Shown here one piece after another: positions 1 through 49,402 of a stretch of 59,880 nucleotides of DNA. The translations under genes were made by a program, and so were the position numbers. Source of the DNA: Minisyncoccia bacterium (GTDB lineage: Bacteria > Patescibacteriota > Minisyncoccia > Phycocordibacterales > Phycocordibacteraceae); assembly GCA_038212075.1 (NCBI GenBank), contig JBBQUV010000002.1:73343-133222 (forward strand), written 5' to 3'. Positions within the stretch are counted from its first letter, which is position 1; every line of letters starts with the position of its first letter. The notes under the pieces were generated by a model. The model was not told the DNA's origin and searched no databases. It saw only the letters and a list, made by a program, of their open reading frames with translations.

Positions 1-753
1 TCGGGTACGGGCGTCATTATTGACTCGCGTGGACTTATTCTTACCGTCGCCCACGTCGGTGAATATTTTCTGCTTGCAGATGGAACAAGGAGCGCGCCCG
101 TAACGTGTGTGATTCGCAAAGGTTCACCCGCAACCGATGCCTACGACGCAAAACTCGTGTATCTTTCTCCGTCATGGCTTTCCGCAAACGCAAACACTCT
201 TATTGAAACGGCCCCAAAGGGTACCGGAGAAAACGATTTCGCTGTTCTCGCTATTACAGGGAGTCATACCGACACGCCACTGCCTACGTCTTTCCCTTCT
301 ATCTCGCTTGGCACTGATGTGCCGAAGGTTGGTGAGCGTGTTGTTATCGGTGCTTACGCCGCGCAATATCTTGGTAGTACAGATGTAAAAACGAGTTTGT
401 ACCCAACACTAGTGTTTGACCCTATTACGAATCGCTATACGTTTAGTACTACTACGATTGATTTGATTTCAATAAAAGGCACGGCCGCCGCTCAAGAAGG
501 TTCGTCTGGTGGCGCGCTTGTTGATGAGCACAATCAAATTGTTGGGCTTATTGCGACAAGCAAAGTCGCAGGTGCCCTTTCCGATCACGTGCTTAATGCC
601 ATTTCATCTCGTCACATTCGCACGAGTTTTATGAACGATATGCGCCAAGGTTTTGATTCTTATTTTGCATCGCGTGATATTCCAACACTAATTGATGCGT
701 TTTCGGCTGAAGCAAGTACGTTACGCGCTATTTTGAGTCATGCGCTCTACTAA
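1..753 (+). CDS. trypsin-like (S1 family) serine protease, 5' end cut by window edge
   Basis: Frame 1 is open from nt 1 and in frame with ORF 109..753. Translation has SGTGVIIDSRGLILTVAHV (catalytic His context) and AAQEGSSGGALVD (GxSGG Ser motif). A hairpin plus T-run follows the stop. Confidence 0.7.
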   Translation, partial: SGTGVIIDSRGLILTVAHVGEYFLLADGTRSAPVTCVIRKGSPATDAYDAKLVYLSPSWLSANANTLIETAPKGTGENDFAVLAITGSHTDTPLPTSFPSISLGTDVPKVGERVVIGAYAAQYLGSTDVKTSLYPTLVFDPITNRYTFSTTTIDLISIKGTAAAQEGSSGGALVDEHNQIVGLIATSKVAGALSDHVLNAISSRHIRTSFMNDMRQGFDSYFASRDIPTLIDAFSAEASTLRAILSHALY

Positions 754-796: not shown

Positions 797-826
797 TAGT
801 CGGGGTGCGGAGAATCGGACTTCGTC
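797..826 (-). repeat. degenerate copy of a tRNA 3' end (T arm, acceptor 3' strand, A, CTA), 47 nt downstream of tRNA-Pro
   Basis: tagtcggggtgcggagaatcggacttcgtc aligns ungapped with the tRNA-Pro 3' end tggtcggggcgccgggaatcgaacccggtc (874..903) at 22/30. No matching 5' half is present. Confidence 0.5.
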
Positions 827-873
827 ATTTTTCCTACGGACTTACGGCTGTTGCTACGAGCCGATAAACTTTT

Positions 874-947
874 TGGTCGGGGCGCCGGGAATCGAACCCG
901 GTCATCTTGCTCCCAAAGCAAGCGTACTACCGGTATACGACGCCCCG
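874..947 (-). tRNA. tRNA-Pro (anticodon UGG), CCA encoded
   Basis: Hand-folded cloverleaf: acceptor CGGGGCG/CGCCCCG, D stem GTAT/GTAC, anticodon stem CTTGC/GCAAG with loop TTTGGGA, T arm CCGGG-TTCGATT-CCCGG, then A-CCA. 74 nt. Confidence 0.9.
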
Positions 948-1437: not shown

Positions 1438-1563
1438 GACTTTTTAAAATATGGCTTATTTACAATGTTTTGGAAAGACTTCTCATGTATTCTTCATAAA
1501 AGTGCTGTCCTTTATCCCCAGTGTACACACCTTTATCCACTTTTGTGTGGAAATGCACAGAAA

Positions 1564-1594
1564 GCAAAAACGAGCCGTTGCGGCTCGTTTTTGC
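1564..1594 (-). terminator. intrinsic terminator closing the minus-strand tRNA-Arg / tRNA-Gly / element A unit (bidirectional shape)
   Basis: gcaaaaacgagccg-ttgc-ggctcgtttttgc: perfect stem flanked by A- and T-runs. Confidence 0.6.
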
Positions 1595-1608
1595 TAACCA
1601 AAGTAGCT

Positions 1609-1773
1609 GTGCGGCTAAGGAGAACCTCGATTACGATTTCGGTCACGGATAACGCCTATGCCGCCGCTTAGGCATTTCCGCGACCCCGGCTCGCCGTTTT
1701 GGCTTACTAGCCAAAACATGCTCTGCCTTCCGATTCTCCACAGACGCCAGCAGATGGCGTCCTTTAGCCGCAC
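1609..1773 (-). ncRNA. unclassified structured element A (tRNA-Gly 3'-end mimic; candidate ncRNA or miniature mobile-element relic)
   Basis: About 13-bp closing helix (gtgcggctaagga / tcctttagccgcac). 1609..1624 is identical to the tRNA-Gly 3' end at 1796..1811. 1729..1739 tccgattctcc is an inverted exact copy of the tRNA-Gly T loop plus T stem. Internal hairpins lie at 1743..1761 and 1697..1718. It sits between tRNA-Gly and a terminator. Strand and RNA status are unproven. Confidence 0.45.
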
Positions 1774-1796
1774 AAAATCTCACGTTATTCGTTTTG

Positions 1797-1867
1797 TGCG
1801 GCTAAGGAGAATCGGACTCCTATCTCATCCTTGGCAAGGACGTGTTCTACCATTGAACCATAGCCGC
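1797..1867 (-). tRNA. tRNA-Gly (anticodon GCC), no encoded CCA
   Basis: Cloverleaf: GCGGCTA/TAGCCGC acceptor, D stem GTTC/GAAC, anticodon loop TTGCCAA, T arm AGGAG-TCCGATT-CTCCT, discriminator A. 71 nt. Confidence 0.9.
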
Positions 1868-1920: not shown

Positions 1921-1995
1921 TGGTGCCCCGGCCAGGACTCGAACCCGGAACAGCTGATCCGAAGTCAGCCGTGATATCCATTTCACCACCGGGGC
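1921..1995 (-). tRNA. tRNA-Arg (anticodon UCG), CCA encoded
   Basis: Cloverleaf: GCCCCGG/CCGGGGC acceptor, anticodon stem GCTGA/TCAGC with loop CTTCGGA, T arm CCGGG-TTCGAGT-CCTGG, A-CCA. 75 nt. Confidence 0.9.
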
Positions 1996-2055: not shown

Positions 2056-3519
2056 ATGCACTTCCCTATCCCCCCTGAAGTATCAAAAGTTGCGGAAGGA
2101 CTTCGCTCCAACGGCTTTGAAGCCTATCTTGTAGGCGGCTGTGTTCGCGATCTTTTGCTCAATCGAAAACCGAAAGATTGGGATGTCACCACAAATGCAA
2201 AACCTGAAGATATTCAAAGAGTCTTTCCTGATTCTTTCTACGAGAACGAGTTTGGCACTGTAGGGGTTAAAACAGACTCAGGAGACGAGACTACAGCAAT
2301 TGTTGAAGTAACCCCCTACCGTACTGAATCTACGTACTCTGATAAGCGTAGACCCGATGCTGTTGCGTTTGGAGATTCTCTTGAAGCCGACCTTGCCCGT
2401 AGAGACTTCACCATCAATGCTCTTGCCCTTGATGAATCTAAAGGACAAATCATTGACCCTTATAAAGGACAAAAGGACATAGAAGCGAAGGTTGTTCGAG
2501 CTGTCGGTGACCCATGTGTCCGTTTTGAAGAGGACGCCCTTCGTCTTATGCGCGCAATACGCCTTGTGGCAGAGCTTGAGTTTGCGCTTGATGCTGAAAC
2601 TGCGGCCGCAATACAGGAAAAAAGCTCAAACCTAAGGCATATTTCAAAGGAACGTATTCGCGATGAATTGGTACGCATTTTGAACTCTAGCCAGCCAATG
2701 ATGGCGCTTACGCTCGCCCAACAGCTTGGCGTCCTAGAATTTGTCGCTCATGACCTTGTGCGTGGTATCGGCATTGAACAAAATCAAGCCCATAGCTACG
2801 ACGTTTTTGGGCATTTAATGCGCAGTATGCAACACGCCGCGGATAAAGACTGGGACTTTACACTCCGCCTTTCTGCCCTATTCCATGATGTAGCTAAGCC
2901 AGAAACTCGTCGCTGGTCGGACGAAAAGAAAGAATGGACCTTCCATGGCCACGAAGTTGTGGGTTCACGTGTAACTCGTAAGGCGTTAGAAGAACTGAAG
3001 TTTTCACGTGAAATTATAGATAAAGTTGTGAAACTAGTTAGGTGGCACATGTTCTTCTCCGACCCAGACCAAATCACTCTTTCAGCGGTACGGCGCATGA
3101 TTACAAACGTTGGTGAGGAGAATATCTGGGATCTTTTGAATTTACGTATATGCGACCGCATTGGAACAGGCCGACCAAAGGAACAACCCTTCAGATTTAG
3201 GAAATACAAAGCCATGGTAGAGCAGGCACTTCGGGATCCTATTTCAGTGGGAATGCTTAAAACAGACGGGAATAGACTTATGGAGCGTTTTCACGTGCAA
3301 ACGGGCCCACGTATAGGATGGACACTCAATGCTCTACTTGAAGAGGTTTTAGAGGATTCTGAAAGGAATACCGAGGATTACTTAGACGAAAGGACAAAAG
3401 CGCTTTTAGCGCTCAATGATCCTGACTTAATGGCTCTTGGGGAATCAGGCAAGAAAAGAAGGGAAGAAGAGGAAGAGGCGGCAATCAAGGGCATAATGGA
3501 CAAACATCACGTTTGCTAG
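2056..3519 (+). CDS. cca: CCA-adding tRNA nucleotidyltransferase with HD domain
   Basis: 487 aa. N-terminal GGCVRDLLLNRKPKDWDVTT (pol-beta nucleotidyltransferase head), RRDFTINALA, then HD-domain FHDVAKP...HGHEVVG. Confidence 0.85.
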   Translation: MHFPIPPEVSKVAEGLRSNGFEAYLVGGCVRDLLLNRKPKDWDVTTNAKPEDIQRVFPDSFYENEFGTVGVKTDSGDETTAIVEVTPYRTESTYSDKRRPDAVAFGDSLEADLARRDFTINALALDESKGQIIDPYKGQKDIEAKVVRAVGDPCVRFEEDALRLMRAIRLVAELEFALDAETAAAIQEKSSNLRHISKERIRDELVRILNSSQPMMALTLAQQLGVLEFVAHDLVRGIGIEQNQAHSYDVFGHLMRSMQHAADKDWDFTLRLSALFHDVAKPETRRWSDEKKEWTFHGHEVVGSRVTRKALEELKFSREIIDKVVKLVRWHMFFSDPDQITLSAVRRMITNVGEENIWDLLNLRICDRIGTGRPKEQPFRFRKYKAMVEQALRDPISVGMLKTDGNRLMERFHVQTGPRIGWTLNALLEEVLEDSERNTEDYLDERTKALLALNDPDLMALGESGKKRREEEEEAAIKGIMDKHHVC

Positions 3520-3568
3520 TTTTCACGTGTAACGTCTCACGCGAAACATTTCGTAGGATAGATAACAA

Positions 3569-3668
3569 AAAACCGCCTGTAGACATTTTTTTGTAGAGAC
3601 TCGGGGAAGGAGCAGGGGGCAAAAGTAGTGAGTCTCCACGAGATGTAAGTCTGGTGGCGGTTTTTATT
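3569..3668. other. expanded terminator-like hairpin: aaaaaaccgcc ... ggcggttttt enclosing about 77 nt with an inner 7-bp stem
   Basis: Outer arms aaccgcc (3571..3577) and ggcggtt (3655..3661) flanked by A/T runs. Inner stem gagactc (3597..3603) / gagtctc (3631..3637). Lies in the 415-bp gap between convergent cca and xth. Confidence 0.35.
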
Positions 3669-3934
3669 TTTTTTATTCGCGCTGTGTATCGGCACCAAGC
3701 AGAATCCAATATTTTGGGTGCTATTTGGTACCGACAACCCGTTAGATGGCAAAACCACTTATATATGCGGGGATACGCCCCGAATCGTTGTTTTTGCCTT
3801 TTTACGTTTCTGCGCGCTGATAGAAAGAACTCGCAAGGTGCAGTAACGCCCAGTCGCCCTCTAGGACATATAATACTCTCAATAAGGTGCCAGTAAAGGA
3901 CACCACTGTGGATAATGTCCTTTATATATGTCTT

Positions 3935-7642: not shown

Positions 7643-8539
7643 CTATCTATCGCGACCGTGGAATTTTTTATGGATTTCGCGAAGATGAGAGTCGGTAACA
7701 TGTGTGTAAATTTGCGTGGTGTTAATGGATGCATGGCCAAGGAGTTGCTGTACGGAGCGAATGTCGGCACCGTTTGAAAGCAAATCCGTTGCAAATGAGT
7801 GACGGAGAACGTGGGGGGTAACTTTTTTCGTGATACCGGCCTTGGCGGCGTACACTTTTATAATTCGTTCAATGGAACGTGGGGTGATGCGCTCACCCCG
7901 CTCGCGTCCCTTCGCAATATTTACAAAAAGTCCTTCGCCCATGTCTTTACGCGTTTTCAAATAGCCAGAGACCGCCGATTTTGCGGTGGGGGACAGAAAC
8001 ACCACACGTACTTTATCGCCCTTACCACGCACCGAGAGTTCGTCGCGGGTAAGATCCATATCGGAATCAAGTGCACAGAGTTCTGAAACACGCAGGCCGG
8101 TGGAAAAAAGAAGTTCAAACATTGCACGGTCACGCATGGATTTTTCATCGTCGCCGTCGGCCGCTTTCATTAAGCGGTTCAGTTCCGTCGGAGTGATGAG
8201 GTCAAGTGAGCGCTCAGGAAGCTTCGCCAGTTCAATGCGTTCGGGAGAAATGCATTCAATACCGCGTTTACGGAGAAATTTTAGGTACGCGCGAAGCGCG
8301 ATAAGGTAGTAGTTTTGCGTACGGCGCTTCATTGAGCCGTTCATGGTGCCCGGTTGGCGATTCAACCACAGTCGGAATTCGCGGATATTTTCTTCAGTGA
8401 TGTCTGCAACCGATGCAATCTTCATTTGTGTAAAGTAGCGGGTGAGGTATCGATCGTAGTTCTCAATCGTCTTCACCGAGCGCCCGCGCTCAATTTCTAT
8501 GTATTCCAGAAACTGTCGCTTCATTGTTTCCGCGTTCAT
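7643..8539 (-). CDS. tyrosine site-specific recombinase, XerC/XerD-like
   Basis: 298 aa. N-terminal SAM-like domain (FLEYIEIERGRSVKTIENYDRYL) and C-terminal HVLRHSFATDLLSNGADIRSVQQLLGHASINTTQIYTHV (R..HxxR..Y catalytic set). Confidence 0.85.
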   Translation of the reverse strand: MNAETMKRQFLEYIEIERGRSVKTIENYDRYLTRYFTQMKIASVADITEENIREFRLWLNRQPGTMNGSMKRRTQNYYLIALRAYLKFLRKRGIECISPERIELAKLPERSLDLITPTELNRLMKAADGDDEKSMRDRAMFELLFSTGLRVSELCALDSDMDLTRDELSVRGKGDKVRVVFLSPTAKSAVSGYLKTRKDMGEGLFVNIAKGRERGERITPRSIERIIKVYAAKAGITKKVTPHVLRHSFATDLLSNGADIRSVQQLLGHASINTTQIYTHVTDSHLREIHKKFHGRDR

Positions 8540-43632: not shown

Positions 43633-43820
43633 TGTGGAAGTGGGGGAGAACCGCGATTACGCATTTGGTCACAGATAATTTTCTGCTGAAAATTTCTGCG
43701 AAGCCTTGCGCTTGATTTTCTAACTCACTAGTTCGTAACAAAATCTACGCCCGCCTCGCGCCGTCGCGCTCCGGCTTTCAATTCTCCACGCACGTTCTCC
43801 CAGAACGTGCTCCACTCCAG
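43633..43820 (-). ncRNA. unclassified structured element B, homologous in architecture to element A but matched to the tmRNA 3' end
   Basis: 43633..43650 is a tmRNA 3'-end copy. 43646..43678 is 28/33 identical to 1620..1652. 43777..43787 ttcaattctcc is an exact inverted copy of the tmRNA T loop plus T stem. Hairpin at 43790..43810, then tccactccag, an inverted acceptor-like end. RNA status is unproven. Confidence 0.4.
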
Positions 43821-43865
43821 AAAAAAGAAAAACCGCATAACGCGGTTTTTCTTTTTTCTGTGGAA
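43818..43865. repeat. 48-bp perfect direct repeat, copy 2
   Basis: Identical to 42364..42411. Followed by ttggttattcc instead of gtgggggag. Confidence 0.9.
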
Positions 43866-44051
43866 TTGGTTATTCCAGGTTAGAACTTCGCTGATACTAA
43901 ACAGCTCCTCATATTTCCTACGAGTGGTGGATGAGTGGGTATCATCTTGAGTACACAAAAGCCAATATGTTCCTACAGTATGTTGAAAATGAGCGCGAGA
44001 GATTAGAACCTACTACCAAACAGGATATAATCGAAGTCATGAAGGGATACT

Positions 44052-44714
44052 ATGAATAAGAACATCGCCATCACTATCAGTGCATTCGATCGCTCGCCCG
44101 ACGGTGGCAAAGGGTTGGCGCGCGACACGCGTGTCCGCTGGGCGCTTGAAGAAGTTGGCCAGCCCTATAATATTCTTCCCGTCTCATTCAAAGAGCTGAA
44201 AGAGCCTGCATATCTAGCGCTCCAGCCTTTTGGCTCAATCCCTATGTATAAAGAGGGCGATCTTGTCTTGTTTGAGTCGGGATCAATCGTGCTCCATATC
44301 GCCGAGAACTATTCGGGACTCTTGCCGAAGGAGATCAATGCCCGGGCCCGCGCGATCACGTGGATGTTTGCGGCAGTTAGCACGGTGGAACCGCCGATTC
44401 TTGACCTCTCCATTGTTAGGGTCGTGGAAAACAATGAATCATGGAGCAAAGAGCGCCTGCCCTTGGTCATGGACCGTATCCGCTCCCGCCTGGAAAAGCT
44501 TTCCGCCCGCCTTGGCGATGCCGACTGGCTTGATGGCGAATTCAGTGCGGGCGATCTCATGATGGTGTCGGTGCTGCTCCGAGCAAAGTCGTCGGGTGTT
44601 CTAGATGAATACTCGAATGTTGCTGCCTATGTCGCGCGAGGCGAGGCACGCCCGGCCTATAAGCGCGCGTTCGCCGCTCAATTGGCATTTAACACACGCG
44701 ACGCTGGAGTGTAA
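44052..44714 (+). CDS. glutathione S-transferase family protein
   Basis: 220 aa. PFGSIPMYKEGDLVLFESGSIVLHIAE (thioredoxin-like N domain with the ESxxI motif) and a helical C domain. GC-rich relative to its flanks. Confidence 0.8.
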   Translation: MNKNIAITISAFDRSPDGGKGLARDTRVRWALEEVGQPYNILPVSFKELKEPAYLALQPFGSIPMYKEGDLVLFESGSIVLHIAENYSGLLPKEINARARAITWMFAAVSTVEPPILDLSIVRVVENNESWSKERLPLVMDRIRSRLEKLSARLGDADWLDGEFSAGDLMMVSVLLRAKSSGVLDEYSNVAAYVARGEARPAYKRAFAAQLAFNTRDAGV

Positions 44715-44802
44715 TGGCATAAGATAAGCGTAGTTTTAAAGTAGAAAACCGCCTCACGGGCGGTTTTCTAATGTTCTATATGTTTCCATATAGTTCTATA
44801 TC

Positions 44803-45201
44803 GGTGGAAGTGGGGAGAATTGAACTCCCGTCCGAGAATGGTACTTGAAACGCTTCTACGACGCATAGTCAGTGTTGGTGATTCAGTATGGACATAAGAA
44901 CACTGACGAAAGCGTCCATACCTAATCCCTTATTTAAATTCGGGGGCGGGAAGTCCCTGAATCGATCTTATAGGTTATTCCGCCCGCAGACTCCGCTATA
45001 AGAACCGGAGACTGAAGACGTCGCTTGTGCGAAAGCGCGAGGCTTTTACGCAAGAGCGAACGCGAGGTTTCCCATGTAGGGAGACTTCACGCTTGCAGTG
45101 TTTTTGTTTGCAAGTTTGGTGCCCACCAGTTTTAAGTGGTGTGTGGGCGTTCACTGCGTCGCGCATTTTCAAGGAACAAACCGTCGAAACCGATCACTCC
45201 C
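44803..45201 (-). ncRNA. ssrA: tmRNA (SsrA)
   Basis: 5' GGGAGTGATCGGTTTCGACGG. 3' T arm GGGAG-TTCAATT-CTCCC, acceptor CACTTCC-A-CC with G3:U70. Internal tag frame GCA AAC ... GCT CTT GCG TAA (45111..45046) encodes ANKNTASVKSPYMGNLAFALA. Directly downstream of smpB. Confidence 0.85.
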
Positions 45202-45242
45202 TCACAACACATCTTCTCACAAGCTGTGCTTTGAGCGAGCGA

Positions 45243-47806: not shown

Positions 47807-48481
47807 ATGGCATTACGAATCAAGAAACTTGAAGCCATACGGATGCGTAAAACGGGTGCAAGTTATAGTCAGATAAAAGAGGTACTTCATGTAAGTAAAA
47901 GTACACTGAGTCTGTGGCTTAGTAGTATGCCGCTTTCAGAAAAACGCATAAGAGAGTTACGGGACTTTAGCGAACTACGAATAGAAAGGTATCGAGAAAC
48001 ACGCCGTAGAACTAAAGAAAAAAGACAAAAAGATGTTCTTGGTCGTGTGGGAAAAGAAATAGGCACGTTGAGCAAACGGGAACTCTTTGTCGCAGGTCTG
48101 TTTCTGTATTGGGCAGAGGGAGGCAAAACAGTTGATACTTCCGTATGTGTCTCGAATGCAGACCCTGCTATGTTGATTTTCTTTATTCGCTGGCTTGAAC
48201 TTCTTGGAGTATCTAAAAGTCGACTTAAGGTGAAGATTCATCTATACAAGGATATGCGTGTCCGTACAGAATTATTGTACTGGTCAAAAGTTCTCGATAT
48301 CCCCTTATCTCAATTCAGAAAACCATATATCAAAAACTCATCAAGGTCAGGTCTGTCGTATCCTCAACGGTTTACTCATGGTACTGGCAACGTGATATTT
48401 GGTAACCGAGATGTATCAGAGAAGGTTCTGCTCAGTCTCGACTACATACGGTCAATGTTTGCAGAGGAAGGGTCTGTGTGA
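47807..48481 (+). CDS. HTH plus LAGLIDADG-like (homing-endonuclease-type) protein
   Basis: 224 aa. N-terminal GASYSQIKEVLHVSKSTLSLWL (resolvase-type HTH). RELFVAGLFLYWAEGGKT resembles a single LAGLIDADG motif. Ends 14 nt before tRNA-Ile. Confidence 0.45.
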   Translation: MALRIKKLEAIRMRKTGASYSQIKEVLHVSKSTLSLWLSSMPLSEKRIRELRDFSELRIERYRETRRRTKEKRQKDVLGRVGKEIGTLSKRELFVAGLFLYWAEGGKTVDTSVCVSNADPAMLIFFIRWLELLGVSKSRLKVKIHLYKDMRVRTELLYWSKVLDIPLSQFRKPYIKNSSRSGLSYPQRFTHGTGNVIFGNRDVSEKVLLSLDYIRSMFAEEGSV

Positions 48482-48495
48482 TTCGATAACAATAC

Positions 48496-48568
48496 GCGTC
48501 CATAGCTCAATGGTTAGAGCACTCGGCTTATATCCGAACGGTTGCAGGTTCGAGTCCTGCTGGACGCA
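48496..48568 (+). tRNA. tRNA-Ile with unmodifiable-type anticodon UAU (ileX-like body), no encoded CCA
   Basis: Cloverleaf: GCGTCCA/TGGACGC, D arm GCTC-AATGGTTA-GAGC, anticodon stem CTCGG/CCGAA with loop CTTATAT (anticodon TAT), T arm GCAGG-TTCGAGT-CCTGC, discriminator A. 73 nt. Confidence 0.85.
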
Positions 48569-49402
48569 CTATTTAGGAAACACGTCAGTGAGAAGGTTGG
48601 AGTCGTAGAAATCCCCAGCGAGCCCACCGAAACTGTATTTGTTAGTACCAACATCAATTTCTGCGCCTCCTATTTGCGGGTTGGCGTTTGGATTTGAATG
48701 AGTAAAGCCGATGTTGAAAAGCGTGGAAAGTACTGCTGGTTTATTGGCGATAGGAAAGCCGGATTTTGCCCACGCTGTCTCTATTTCTTTCAAATACAAT
48801 CCTGCATACACATAACTCCAATAATGGTCGTGTTCTGAGGTCATACGTGCAAAGCGCTCTTGTTTTATATCGGTACTTGAAGCGGTAGAGAAATCAAGCG
48901 CGTGCTCATACGCCGTGCCCGGATAGTAAGGTGATGCGGGATTTTTCAAATTGTTTTCAATTTGAATGGCGGTATCTTCTTTAATGCCCATCACTCCCCA
49001 TGAAAATTGCGTTTGTGAGCCGAGGATTTTAAGGGGAAGGAAAAATTGTTTGTATACCTCGCGCTCAGTAAAGAAAAGACGAAGCTGTTCCGCTACCAAA
49101 TTTTCAACAATGGCGCGCGCTGGAACTCCTGAATCTTTTGATGCACGATTTATGGCGCTGATGTCTTTTCGTATAGACGCATCAAGCACTCCCCATTCCT
49201 CAGTGGTGCTCCATGGAAGAAGCGGCGTGCTGTCGGAAGCAGGTACCGCGGCACTCGAGCCCTGAATAAACGCTTCACGCTGGGTATCAATAATTCCGGT
49301 AGTGTTGGTGATGCCGTACTTCACCGCAAAGTACATGGACACGAACAAAAAGCCGATGACGGCAAATATATACACCAGAATCTGGAACCCCTTTTTTATC
49401 AT
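48569..49402 (-). CDS. membrane-anchored hypothetical protein (277 aa)
   Basis: N-terminal TM ILVYIFAVIGFLFVSMYFAV followed by a large extracytoplasmic domain. No family recognised. Confidence 0.55.
   Translation of the reverse strand: MIKKGFQILVYIFAVIGFLFVSMYFAVKYGITNTTGIIDTQREAFIQGSSAAVPASDSTPLLPWSTTEEWGVLDASIRKDISAINRASKDSGVPARAIVENLVAEQLRLFFTEREVYKQFFLPLKILGSQTQFSWGVMGIKEDTAIQIENNLKNPASPYYPGTAYEHALDFSTASSTDIKQERFARMTSEHDHYWSYVYAGLYLKEIETAWAKSGFPIANKPAVLSTLFNIGFTHSNPNANPQIGGAEIDVGTNKYSFGGLAGDFYDSNLLTDVFPK

Follow-up and report, generated by a model that had tools for sequence, protein, structure and literature searches.

Mobile DNA at transfer RNA (tRNA) and transfer-messenger RNA (tmRNA) genes is known from genomic islands, cis-mobilizable elements (CIMEs) and tycheposon-type cargo islands, which insert at the 3′ part of the gene, supply a replacement end and leave the displaced end as a direct repeat that starts in the T loop; they occur in tandem arrays and in small forms without an internal integrase. 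Structured RNAs accompany other mobile elements. The bridge (seek) RNAs of the insertion sequences IS110/IS1111 are noncoding RNAs (ncRNAs) of ~150-190 nucleotides (nt) with target-matching segments, and the omega (re)RNAs of IS200/IS605, together with palindrome-associated transposable elements (PATEs), join a scaffold to a ~16-nt 3′ segment equal to the flank and have non-autonomous copies. In group I introns, such as the 205-nt Azoarcus tRNA-Ile intron, a guide (P1/P10) is antisense to the end of the upstream exon and to the start of the downstream exon. These traits recur in an element that we describe here from a 59,880-nt stretch of a Minisyncoccia bacterium (Patescibacteriota; GenBank assembly GCA_038212075.1, contig JBBQUV010000002.1, positions 73,343 to 133,222 of the forward strand; hereafter the window). 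The window holds two copies, element A behind tRNA-Gly(GCC) and element B, whose arms copy the tmRNA. The explanation that we favour, tentatively, is that A and B are non-autonomous mobile insertions (about 190-230 bp) lacking an open reading frame (ORF) and specific to tRNA/tmRNA 3′ ends in Paceibacteria-type bacteria of the Candidate Phyla Radiation (CPR), and that an arm of their transcript would recognize the target while the rest would form a scaffold for a partner enzyme encoded elsewhere.

The tRNA-Arg, tRNA-Gly(GCC), tRNA-Pro and tmRNA genes of the window all lie on the minus strand, and the minus (tRNA-sense) strand is also the relevant one for element A. Read in that direction, A consists of GUGCGGCUAA, the hairpin P2, GU, GGAGAAUCGGA, about 100 nt with three hairpins, GG, and UUCUCCUUAGCCGCACA. 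GUGCGGCUAA covers the antisense of the acceptor 3′ strand, the discriminator and C74, and GGAGAAUCGGA opposes the entire T loop and the T-stem 3′ strand, its first 8 nt forming the 5′ strand of helix P3; P2 is inserted at the junction of the acceptor-antisense and T-stem-antisense parts. The distal copy UUCUCCUUAGCCGCACA reproduces tRNA-Gly nt 59-75 exactly, supplies the 3′ strands of P3 and P1, and probably represents what was originally the end of the tRNA-Gly gene, now displaced. The proximal repeat copy is nt 59-76 of the present gene (1796..1813), with the T loop UCCGAUU. The hairpin that follows the distal copy is the native terminator of the tRNA operon.

An earlier note on this DNA had drawn attention to the identity of 1609..1624 (GTGCGGCTAAGGAGAA) with 1796..1811. 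The identity is real and in fact extends over 17 nt (1608..1624 = 1795..1811), and the 16-mer occurs twice in the window against 0.00 expected from 100 shuffles. Its second observation, that 1729..1739 is an exact inverted copy of the tRNA-Gly T loop and T stem, was likewise confirmed, the stem part being the T-stem 3′ strand; the tRNA version (GGAGAATCGGA) has three copies in the window against 0.01 expected, the third of which (809..819) lies inside a displaced tRNA-Pro fragment. The hairpin at 1743..1761, the inverted acceptor strand at 1762..1773 and the inner hairpins are all present, and the minus-strand RNA of A folds with -95.3 kcal/mol (z = -7.3 versus dinucleotide shuffles). Two details had to be corrected. 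The spacer downstream of tRNA-Gly measures 22 nt and not 23, and the ends of the element do pair, not in one helix of about 13 bp, as had been proposed, but in an acceptor-like P1 of 10 bp and a P3 of 8 bp, split by P2.

Relatives of A and B were collected from GTDB genomes and JGI/ENA metagenomes by pattern scan, retrieval of orthologous loci and covariance-model search. The family comprises at least 21 copies in 13 Patescibacteria genomes or metagenome contigs, namely the window and 12 other loci, designated here by L numbers. The working pattern, a stretch common to A and B (GAAAT N8-30 TTATCYGTGACC N5-10 GTAATC), picked out five genuine copies among GTDB genomes and ten among metagenome contigs; its matches in coding DNA (L125, L128, L133, L141, L142) proved on inspection to be due to chance and were dropped, as was a first pattern of 14 bases, GTGACCN5CGTAATCG, with chance matches only in viral contigs (L001-L080). 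More specific patterns were absent from viral contigs, and the phage collection gave nothing beyond tRNA-Gly. Orthologous tRNA-Gly loci fetched through the CCA-enzyme gene provided two more copies, one with a divergent core; the names attached to the closest CCA-enzyme homologues identify the host of the window as a Paceibacteria-type member of the Patescibacteria. The covariance-model search of related genomes, a check proposed in the earlier note, used a model (R1) built from 17 copies; it recovered all 17 and revealed four more outside its training set, after tRNA-Pro in L126, after tRNA-Gly(UCC) in L121, after tRNA-Leu in L124, and as a third tandem copy in L140. Within the window, a covariance model from family members scored A at 118.6 bits and B at 70.4 bits, everything else at 17 bits or less, and the reverse strand of A at only 14 bits.

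All 21 copies are located just 3′ of a tRNA or tmRNA gene and on the same strand. The gap between host and element is 28-67 nt, except for B (1013 nt) and the distal tandem copy of L140 (239 nt). The hosts are Gly-GCC, Gly-UCC, Pro-UGG, Arg-UCU, Leu-GAG, Ala-GGC, Ala-CGC, Glu-CUC and tmRNA; in both L121 and L126 two different tRNAs are followed by a copy. Rfam 15 matched only the flanking tRNAs and tmRNA, and not the element, in the window (E <= 10) and in five other members (E <= 1), which agrees with the by-eye failure of tRNA, signal recognition particle (SRP) RNA, RNase P and tmRNA reported earlier. SRP, 6S, RNase P, tmRNA, YrlA, known ribozymes, introns and omega RNAs were set aside as candidates, there being no Rfam match at the gathering score or at permissive E-values. 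The full-text literature searched contained no description of such an element. We judge the family, which has no conserved ORF, to be novel.

The copies follow a common plan. The antisense arm is followed by a 4-nt junction (GAAA/GGAA), P4 (3 bp), an internal loop GGA/GA, P5 of variable length and GG, then by P6, GAAA, P7, G(G/U/A) and the sense tRNA copy from nt 59. P6 has a 9-bp lower stem with a conserved G·U, a one-nucleotide bulge and a variable upper stem; P7 carries the loop GUAAUC and is replaced or absent in two divergent copies. Nucleotides 1-8 (or more) of the arm form helix P3 with the sense copy, which closes a four-way junction with a core of ~100 nt. In an alignment that was fitted to the model, standard pairs occupied 93.7% of the cells versus 72.9% after shuffling and at most 47% with slid partners, both-sided changes occurred in 39 of 43 pairs, and none of 500 shuffles reached any observed measure. 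G·U or U·G pairs outnumbered A·C or C·A pairs by 56 to 4, an excess that places the structure on the tRNA-sense strand. The compensatory changes and the one-strand tolerance of G·U in this model-fitted alignment are those expected of structured RNAs in general; the folded species is RNA, or possibly single-stranded DNA (ssDNA).

Two subfamilies can be distinguished by what surrounds the core. P2 and the acceptor-antisense module are found in A, B, L121-C, L126a and L136 and are lacking in the other members; the P2-equivalent hairpins of B, L121-C, L126a and L136 differ in sequence from that of A. A second set (L124, L137, L140, L145, L135) carries a conserved two-tier hairpin (AAAAACAAYGAG ... 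CGACUAUGUUUUUGU) between tRNA and arm, for example at 584..530 of the minus strand in L137. This hairpin is found at five different tRNA species and recurs after the distal copy in L137 and L124, giving 63-nt terminal direct repeats. Element A is also spanned by a 52-codon ORF with a GTG start (1615..1773, minus strand). Three features led us to reject a coding reading of this ORF: B contains in-frame stops, the helices differ in length out of frame, and base substitutions are of the compensatory kind. The ORF is not kept in other copies and was judged spurious.

The size and conservation of the family also bear on the most sceptical explanation, in which the block arose by a single duplication or inversion of a tRNA end, or is the inert scar of a decayed island, and serves no function itself. 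Decayed pieces of tRNA and tmRNA genes are indeed present in the window (800..873; ~43858). A one-off local event, which the earlier note had named as the outcome that would undo its proposal, is nevertheless refuted by the existence of 21 homologues at ten tRNA/tmRNA species in 13 sources that share a conserved core of non-tRNA sequence, 39 of its 43 pairs showing compensatory changes, and this explanation as a whole is scarcely credible.

The strand asymmetry bears on another alternative, a folded ssDNA recombination site whose arm and sense copy mimic the double-stranded 3′ end of the tRNA gene and on which a Xer-like or helper tyrosine recombinase acts. Sense and inverted copies of the target flank a strand-specific structured spacer, direct target repeats flank the insertion, terminators precede the element and no transcription signal is evident; moreover, a Xer-like tyrosine recombinase gene (7643..8539), the only one in the window, lies only 6 kb away. 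Integron attC sites and the CTX-phage attP(+) offer a precedent: through imperfect inverted repeats, one strand of these gene-free sites folds into a likeness of a double-stranded target, and their activity is strand-specific. Their target is attI or dif rather than a tRNA, however, and their spacers have no conserved multi-helix junction of the kind that forms the core of the element, whose G·U pairs point to RNA. A G·U pair at a fixed position in 19 of 23 sequences and the conserved junction nucleotides GAAA and GGAGC/CGAG are typical of a functional RNA, the Xer-like gene is syntenic in relatives with an empty site as well, and neither an ssDNA replicon nor a phage with the element was present in the viral and phage collections scanned. 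We therefore regard an ssDNA site as distinctly improbable. The palindromic recombination site that the earlier note had listed among its readings meets the same objection, in that the strong G·U asymmetry and the conserved unpaired nucleotides fit RNA better.

Comparison of each arm with its host revealed a close correspondence. In 20 of the 21 copies the antisense arm matches its own upstream tRNA perfectly, with Watson-Crick pairs only, over 8-19 nt (11 + 8-10 nt where P2 splits the arm), the exception being L139 with nine Watson-Crick pairs, one G·U and one mismatch; against non-cognate tRNAs the mean match was about 5-8 nt. Matched arms were found at each of ten different tRNA/tmRNA hosts. 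The arm ends exactly opposite U54 and covers nt 54-58 and 59-7x in every copy, following the T loop of the host: UCCGAUU (Gly-GCC in this clade) is answered by AAUCGGA, UGCGAUU (L134) by AAUCGCA, UUCAAUU (tmRNA and the L126 tRNA-Pro) by AAUUGAA, and UUCGAGU (L131) by ACUCGAA. The acceptor segment follows too, since the acceptor pair 6-67 of tRNA-Gly is C-G in L121 versus U-A in the window and the arm segment of L121 has changed to match (GUGCGGCCAA).

The sense copies do not account for all of this matching. Sense/direct repeats always begin at nt 59, and nt 54-58 are missing from the distal copy in all members, so three to five additional matches of the arm cannot serve the internal helix; they correspond to the tRNA gene itself, across the nt 58/59 boundary. 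The match of the arm to the tRNA is always at least as good as its match to the distal copy, whose acceptor part is decayed or deleted in L121-C, L131, L126b and L124b, while its T-stem part (P3) is always kept. Scored in a fixed 28-nt window, the repeats measure 7-24 nt in the 20 copies that adjoin their host; in several members the repeat runs on into the spacer hairpin (27-63 nt), reaching about 63 nt by eye in L137. A retrovirus-like primer-binding site was rejected as a reading of the arm, which usually stops short of the tRNA 3′-terminal nucleotides and extends past A58.

The position of the arm across the 58/59 junction would also suit an autocatalytic, intron-like RNA in the T loop. 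The block from the proximal nt 59 to the linker G(G/U) would then be an intron between A58 and the distal U59, the arm an internal guide that, like group I P1/P10, grips the end of the 5′ exon (54-58) and the beginning of the 3′ exon (59-7x), and the four-way junction a new small ribozyme that excises and reverse-splices; with its own copy of the 3′ exon, the element would allow the tRNA to be made even without splicing. The guide geometry is seen in all 21 copies, the arm spanning the junction exactly and always ending at U54, and no protein partner was found among the scanned neighbours. In addition, the predicted minimum-free-energy fold of 13 of 16 co-transcripts is a swapped one, in which the tRNA 5′ acceptor and T-stem 5′ strands pair with the distal copy, tRNA nt 54-76 pair with the arm, and the element forms a compact domain at the T-loop position, its first helix starting at U54 and stacked on the G53 pair. 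On thermodynamic prediction only, this fold lies roughly 3-19 kcal/mol below the cloverleaf plus closed element because of the extra pairs with nt 54-58, and it would make the architecture formally equivalent to an A58/U59 intron equipped with a copy of the 3′ exon. Co-transcriptional folding should, however, favour the ordinary cloverleaf, and the truncated distal copies of L121-C and L131 are unable to adopt the swapped fold. The element has no similarity to known ribozyme or intron classes, no G·U where the 5′ splice site would be, and a variable nucleotide (G, U or A) ahead of the 3′ junction; a return from RNA to DNA would need a reverse transcriptase, of which none was found. The resemblance to group I introns is one of logic only. 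Both have a tRNA host and a similar size, and the predicted fold of the element would leave a tRNA loop as a domain, but this is the T loop and not the anticodon loop, the 3′ exon is duplicated so that splicing is unnecessary, and the P3-P9 core, the G-binding P7, the U·G of the 5′ site and the invariant terminal G are missing. There was no Intron_gpI match, and all pairs around 58/59 are Watson-Crick. We consider an intron-like RNA very unlikely.

Orthologous tRNA-Gly(GCC) loci, whose comparison the earlier note had also recommended, share the order trypsin-like gene, tRNA-Pro, UPF0102, tRNA-Gly, tRNA-Arg and CCA enzyme, and contain the block in some relatives only. The element is present at this site in the window, L121, L145, L127 and L129, where at least three clearly distinct subtypes of the core occur, whereas the site is empty in L144 (85% CCA-enzyme identity), L146, L122, L123 and L126, where the model confirmed the absence. 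As close relatives differ in occupancy, the element has been gained and lost. In the empty sites of L144 and L146, which lack the 22-nt spacer, a terminator stands ~7 nt after the tRNA; the same terminator follows the distal copy in occupied sites. This placement defines the inserted DNA as the proximal copy of nt 59-76 with spacer, arm and core or, equivalently, as spacer, arm, core and distal copy. The T loop UCCGAUU of L144 and L146 shows that this loop is native and was not made by the element. The loop is unusual in itself, with C at position 55, where U or pseudouridine is nearly universal; it occurs in tRNA-Gly(GCC) of the window (T arm at 1806..1816) and of L121, L127, L144 and L146, hence also in relatives without the element, and the tRNA-Ala of L134 has the T loop UGCGAUU.

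Exchange between sites was evident in L140. In a tandem array at 3464-3910, tRNA-Ala(GGC), spacer, arm and core are followed by a distal copy typical of tRNA-Ala(CGC), a repeat of that spacer and arm, and a divergent, truncated third core. Two L140 loci have a nearly identical core and distal copy, with different spacers and arms. The presence of a tRNA-Ala(CGC)-type distal copy at tRNA-Ala(GGC) indicates exchange between the loci and shows that core and distal copy are exchangeable while spacer and arm stay local.

Occupancy of this kind speaks against an ncRNA that serves the host from tRNA operons, as a top-half mimic, as a decoy or sponge for enzymes or toxins that bind the top half, or as an antisense switch of tRNA maturation whose arm would pair with either the 3′ half of the tRNA or the distal copy, with arms that match through co-evolution with the neighbouring tRNA. 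Such a role would agree with the strong structural conservation, which includes unpaired nucleotides, with the constant position beside a tRNA on the same strand, with the two alternative arm pairings that are predicted, and with the arms and P2 of A, B, L121-C, L126a and L136, which mimic an acceptor stem stacked on a T stem. Patchy presence, the use of different tRNAs in different genomes and tandem copies nevertheless fit a selfish element better than a housekeeping regulator; B lies 1 kb from the tmRNA with an opposite-strand gene between them, acceptor mimicry is missing or decayed in most members, and terminators often separate tRNA and element. We hold a host-serving ncRNA to be unlikely. 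The co-transcribed top-half mimic of the earlier note survives in part, for the acceptor/T-stem mimicry does exist in one subfamily; since the module is missing in other members, the acceptor part is lost in several and terminator-like hairpins intervene, mimicry does not define the family and co-transcription is not assured.

The best-supported of the readings put forward in the earlier note is that of a mobile element matched to its tRNA target, given the matched arms at ten hosts, the patchy occupancy, and a distal copy and terminator syntenic with empty sites. The term relic does not apply, as the unit is intact and structurally conserved, and no recombinase is linked to it. In the mobile insertion that we tentatively favour, the inserted DNA would bring its own version of the tRNA 3′ part, T-loop nt 59 through the 3′ end, which keeps the host tRNA intact, followed by a spacer (often with a terminator hairpin), the antisense arm and the ~100-nt four-way-junction core. 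The arm would be complementary to the host from nt 54 through the T-stem 3′ strand and, in some members, to the acceptor 3′ strand as well, and the displaced original tRNA 3′ end would trail the core, pair with the arm and close the junction (P3). The structure most likely forms as RNA on the tRNA-sense strand, by read-through from the tRNA promoter. That the arm is a guide segment we infer from its reach across the insertion point, with matches on either side (54-58 / 59-7x), and the core may act as a scaffold for a recombinase, nuclease or reverse transcriptase of a helper element or of the host, encoded elsewhere. A possible but doubtful extension is a self-contained nucleic-acid-guided module, an RNA of ~125 nt whose exchangeable arm would program insertion at the T loop/3′ end of any tRNA or tmRNA, either as a new small ribozyme capable of splicing and reverse splicing, in effect a bacterial T-loop intron with its own 3′ exon, or as the guide of an as yet undescribed recombinase or nuclease encoded elsewhere in CPR genomes or in their mobile elements.

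Several observations weigh against a mobile, guided element. No partner enzyme came to light: among 39 window proteins scanned with Pfam there was no transposase, reverse transcriptase, TnpB/IscB or IS110 protein, and the precomputed Pfam calls for 10 related loci showed no linked recombinase, transposase, reverse transcriptase or RNA-guided nuclease. Copies beside a recombinase gene, for which the earlier note had suggested looking, did not appear, and no autonomous relative was found. The Xer-like recombinase excepted, the scanned window proteins are housekeeping or uncharacterised (EF-G, EF-Tu, ribosomal proteins, RecG, FtsH and others). A terminator-like hairpin stands just before the antisense arm in many members (B, L126a, L136, L131, L134 and the 'ACUAUGUUUUUGU' spacers), and a promoter scan, itself uninformative, gave no convincing promoter. 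Copy number is low, with one to three copies per genome, all at tRNA/tmRNA genes. The lineage also contains core-free insertions without an integrase, the glutathione S-transferase (GST) segment and the tRNA-Pro scar described below, and direct repeats of tRNA 3′ ends are equally the signature of ordinary integrase-mediated islands. Finally, passive processes, namely template switching or gene conversion in the quasi-palindrome of tRNA, spacer and arm, could keep the arm match perfect without any guide function; a purely passive origin is disfavoured by the fixed end at U54 and by the retention of P2 between two separately matched segments.

Each of the described systems differs from the element in a defining feature. 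As in islands and CIMEs, a direct repeat of the tRNA 3′ end flanks the insertion with the tRNA intact, and occupied and empty sites coexist; those islands, however, have an integrase at the tRNA-proximal end or a helper, whereas the element has no ORF and the only candidate in the window, the Xer-like gene, is syntenic in relatives with empty sites; a helper may be encoded elsewhere. The element is moreover only ~200 bp long, has a covarying four-way junction and an antisense copy of the target, and places one core at ten tRNA species, which is unexpected for a specificity based on an integrase protein alone. Bridge RNAs are encoded beside a DEDD/serine recombinase, of which there is no gene in the window or beside any copy, and present two internal loops, each with a sense left guide and an antisense right guide to neighbouring half-sites of target and donor around a shared core dinucleotide. 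The element has a four-way junction instead of guide-bearing loops, and a single contiguous or split arm directed at the same stretch (59-7x) as the sense copy, with which it pairs.

Elements with omega RNAs insert beside a short conserved transposon-adjacent motif (TAM), a role that the T-loop TTCGA of the host would take here. The distal copy (16-20 nt) directly follows the scaffold, and its target stands after the T-loop TTCGA/TCCGA/TTCAA; this arrangement is equally explained by integration at nt 58/59. Omega scaffolds overlap the tnpB 3′ end and the right end of the insertion sequence, with tnpB and usually tnpA alongside; the element differs in having no nearby tnpA or tnpB and no Rfam or sequence similarity, and no OrfB_IS605 or Y1_Tnp domain was detected in the scanned window proteins. 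Omega RNAs have no antisense guide copy, and the restored tRNA gene would offer a perfect TAM and target, that is, self-targeting. Retron msr-msd RNAs resemble the element in length (~150-170 nt), terminal inverted repeats (a1/a2), internal hairpins and a conserved G after the 5′ arm; they lie directly upstream of a reverse transcriptase gene, and a1/a2 are not tRNA copies. Downstream of the element are UPF0102, other housekeeping genes or terminators, and no RVT domain was found in the scanned window proteins. Miniature inverted-repeat transposable elements share element-specific inverted repeats, short fixed duplications and many dispersed copies, none of which is seen here: the arms differ from copy to copy and equal the local tRNA, and the repeats measure 7-63 nt. 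As the element fails the defining test of every system compared, we class it as a new kind of element.

The second element of the same architecture to which the earlier note had pointed is homologous to A and located on the minus strand at 43635..43819. Its arms copy the tmRNA 3′ end and not tRNA-Gly, a link that the note had missed. The core of B has one hairpin more than that of A, its distal copy (UUCUCCCCCACUUCCA) one C more than the tmRNA 3′ end, and UGGAGUGG is antisense to the tmRNA acceptor 3′ strand minus 1 nt, which results in a bulged U. Right above the hairpin in front of B lies a third, degenerate copy of the tmRNA 3′ end (~43858-43871), which is read as the former proximal copy of B. 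In L136 a B-type element directly follows the tmRNA terminator in the same layout as hairpin and B in the window, and B thus formerly adjoined the tmRNA. An analogous comparison of tmRNA loci through a flanking 214-aa protein found homologues at most 66% identical, all in other neighbourhoods. Mimicry of G3·U70 (alanine identity) in the tmRNA-type elements was considered and dropped as ambiguous, an antisense copy with a 1-nt deletion explaining it equally; the feature is common to B and L136 by descent.

Between the tmRNA and B lies a segment of ~0.95 kb (43876..44801) with a GST-like gene (44052..44714, by its GST domains) and a separate terminator (44742..44770). With the tmRNA 3′ end on one side and the degenerate copy at ~43858..43871 on the other, it appears to be a later, separate integrase-less micro-island inserted at the tmRNA 3′ end. 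The positions of the elements and of their hosts are collected in the table.

Table. Positions of elements A and B, their parts and the neighbouring RNA genes in the window
Feature	Position	Strand	Basis
tRNA-Arg	1921..1995	-	ARAGORN, Rfam
Host tRNA-Gly(GCC)	1796..1867	-	ARAGORN; Rfam tRNA 67.8 bits
Spacer from tRNA-Gly to element A, 22 nt	1774..1795	-	sequence
Element A, 165 nt	1609..1773	- (functional strand)	
Element A, P1 5′ strand GUGCGGCUAA	1764..1773	-	antisense to tRNA-Gly nt 65-74; inverted repeats I3, I4
Element A, P2 hairpin	1742..1762	-	fold prediction
Element A, antisense arm GGAGAAUCGGA	1729..1739	-	exact complement of tRNA-Gly nt 54-64
Element A, four-way-junction core	1627..1728	-	alignments, covariance model R1, covariation
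Core of A, P4	1725-1727 / 1688-1690	-	
Core of A, P5 hairpin	1693-1721	-	
Core of A, P6 hairpin	1641-1685	-	
Core of A, GAAA linker	1637-1640	-	
Core of A, P7 hairpin	1627-1636	-	
Element A, linker GG (1625-1626) and distal sense copy (1608-1624)	1608..1626	-	exact 17-nt direct repeat
Intrinsic terminator hairpin after the distal copy (1595->1563)	1563..1595	-	inverted repeat I2
tRNA-Pro	874..947	-	ARAGORN, Rfam
Element B	43635..43819	-	homologous to A
Element B, linker GG and distal sense copy of the tmRNA 3′ end (UUCUCCCCCACUUCCA)	43635..43652	-	
Element B, four-way-junction core	43653..43776	-	70.4 bits
Element B, antisense arm GGAGAAUUGAA	43777..43787	-	exact complement of tmRNA T loop UUCAAUU and T-stem 3′ strand
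Element B, P2 hairpin (43790-43810) and P1 5′ strand UGGAGUGG (43812-43819)	43790..43819	-	
Terminator-type hairpin (43818-43860) directly upstream of B, with the degenerate tmRNA-end copy (~43858-43871) above it	43818..43875	-	repeats D1, I1
tmRNA gene, host/target of B	44802..45202	-	ARAGORN, Rfam

Other variable spots were noticed beside tRNA genes. Downstream of tRNA-Pro, 800..873 of the minus strand contains the displaced and mutated last third of an older tRNA-Pro (~33 nt, variable loop through 3′ end), which matches the tRNA-Pro 3′ end of L121 and lies ~45 nt from the complete tRNA-Pro; we read it as an integration or replacement scar without a structured core. The interval between tRNA-Arg and tRNA-Gly(GCC), only 53 nt in the window, is a further variable spot beside a tRNA 3′ end, with unrelated cargo in L121 (2615-3865; a 268-aa protein without Pfam domains and a small ORF) and L123 (2345-3867; an Orn/DAP decarboxylase and a small ORF). 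On the plus strand, 15 nt upstream of tRNA-Ile(tat) (48496..48569), a 224-aa protein is encoded (47807..48481) that has an N-terminal HTH_23 domain and a LAGLIDADG-like 'LYWAEG' motif. ORFs inserted directly 5′ of tRNA-Arg in L146 (2256-2936) and L143 (1-729) are homologous to it (28% identity, E 6e-19), which may point to a mobile gene of the homing-endonuclease kind with the 5′ side of tRNA genes as its target; at the corresponding 5′ side of tRNA-Arg the window has ~60 nt only.

If the arm directs insertion, the element would represent a new and very compact form of programmable target recognition beside CRISPR, omega RNA and bridge RNA, or a new class of ribozyme or intron, in CPR bacteria, a poorly understood setting. 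It raises testable questions, namely how micro-islands without an integrase move and whether a tRNA tolerates or even uses a large domain in its T loop. Even on a conservative reading, the family adds an RNA structure that is new, absent from Rfam and supported by unusually clear covariation, explains the recurrent duplications of tRNA 3′ ends in Patescibacteria genomes, and provides a marker of horizontal DNA traffic at the tRNA and tmRNA genes of these tiny genomes.

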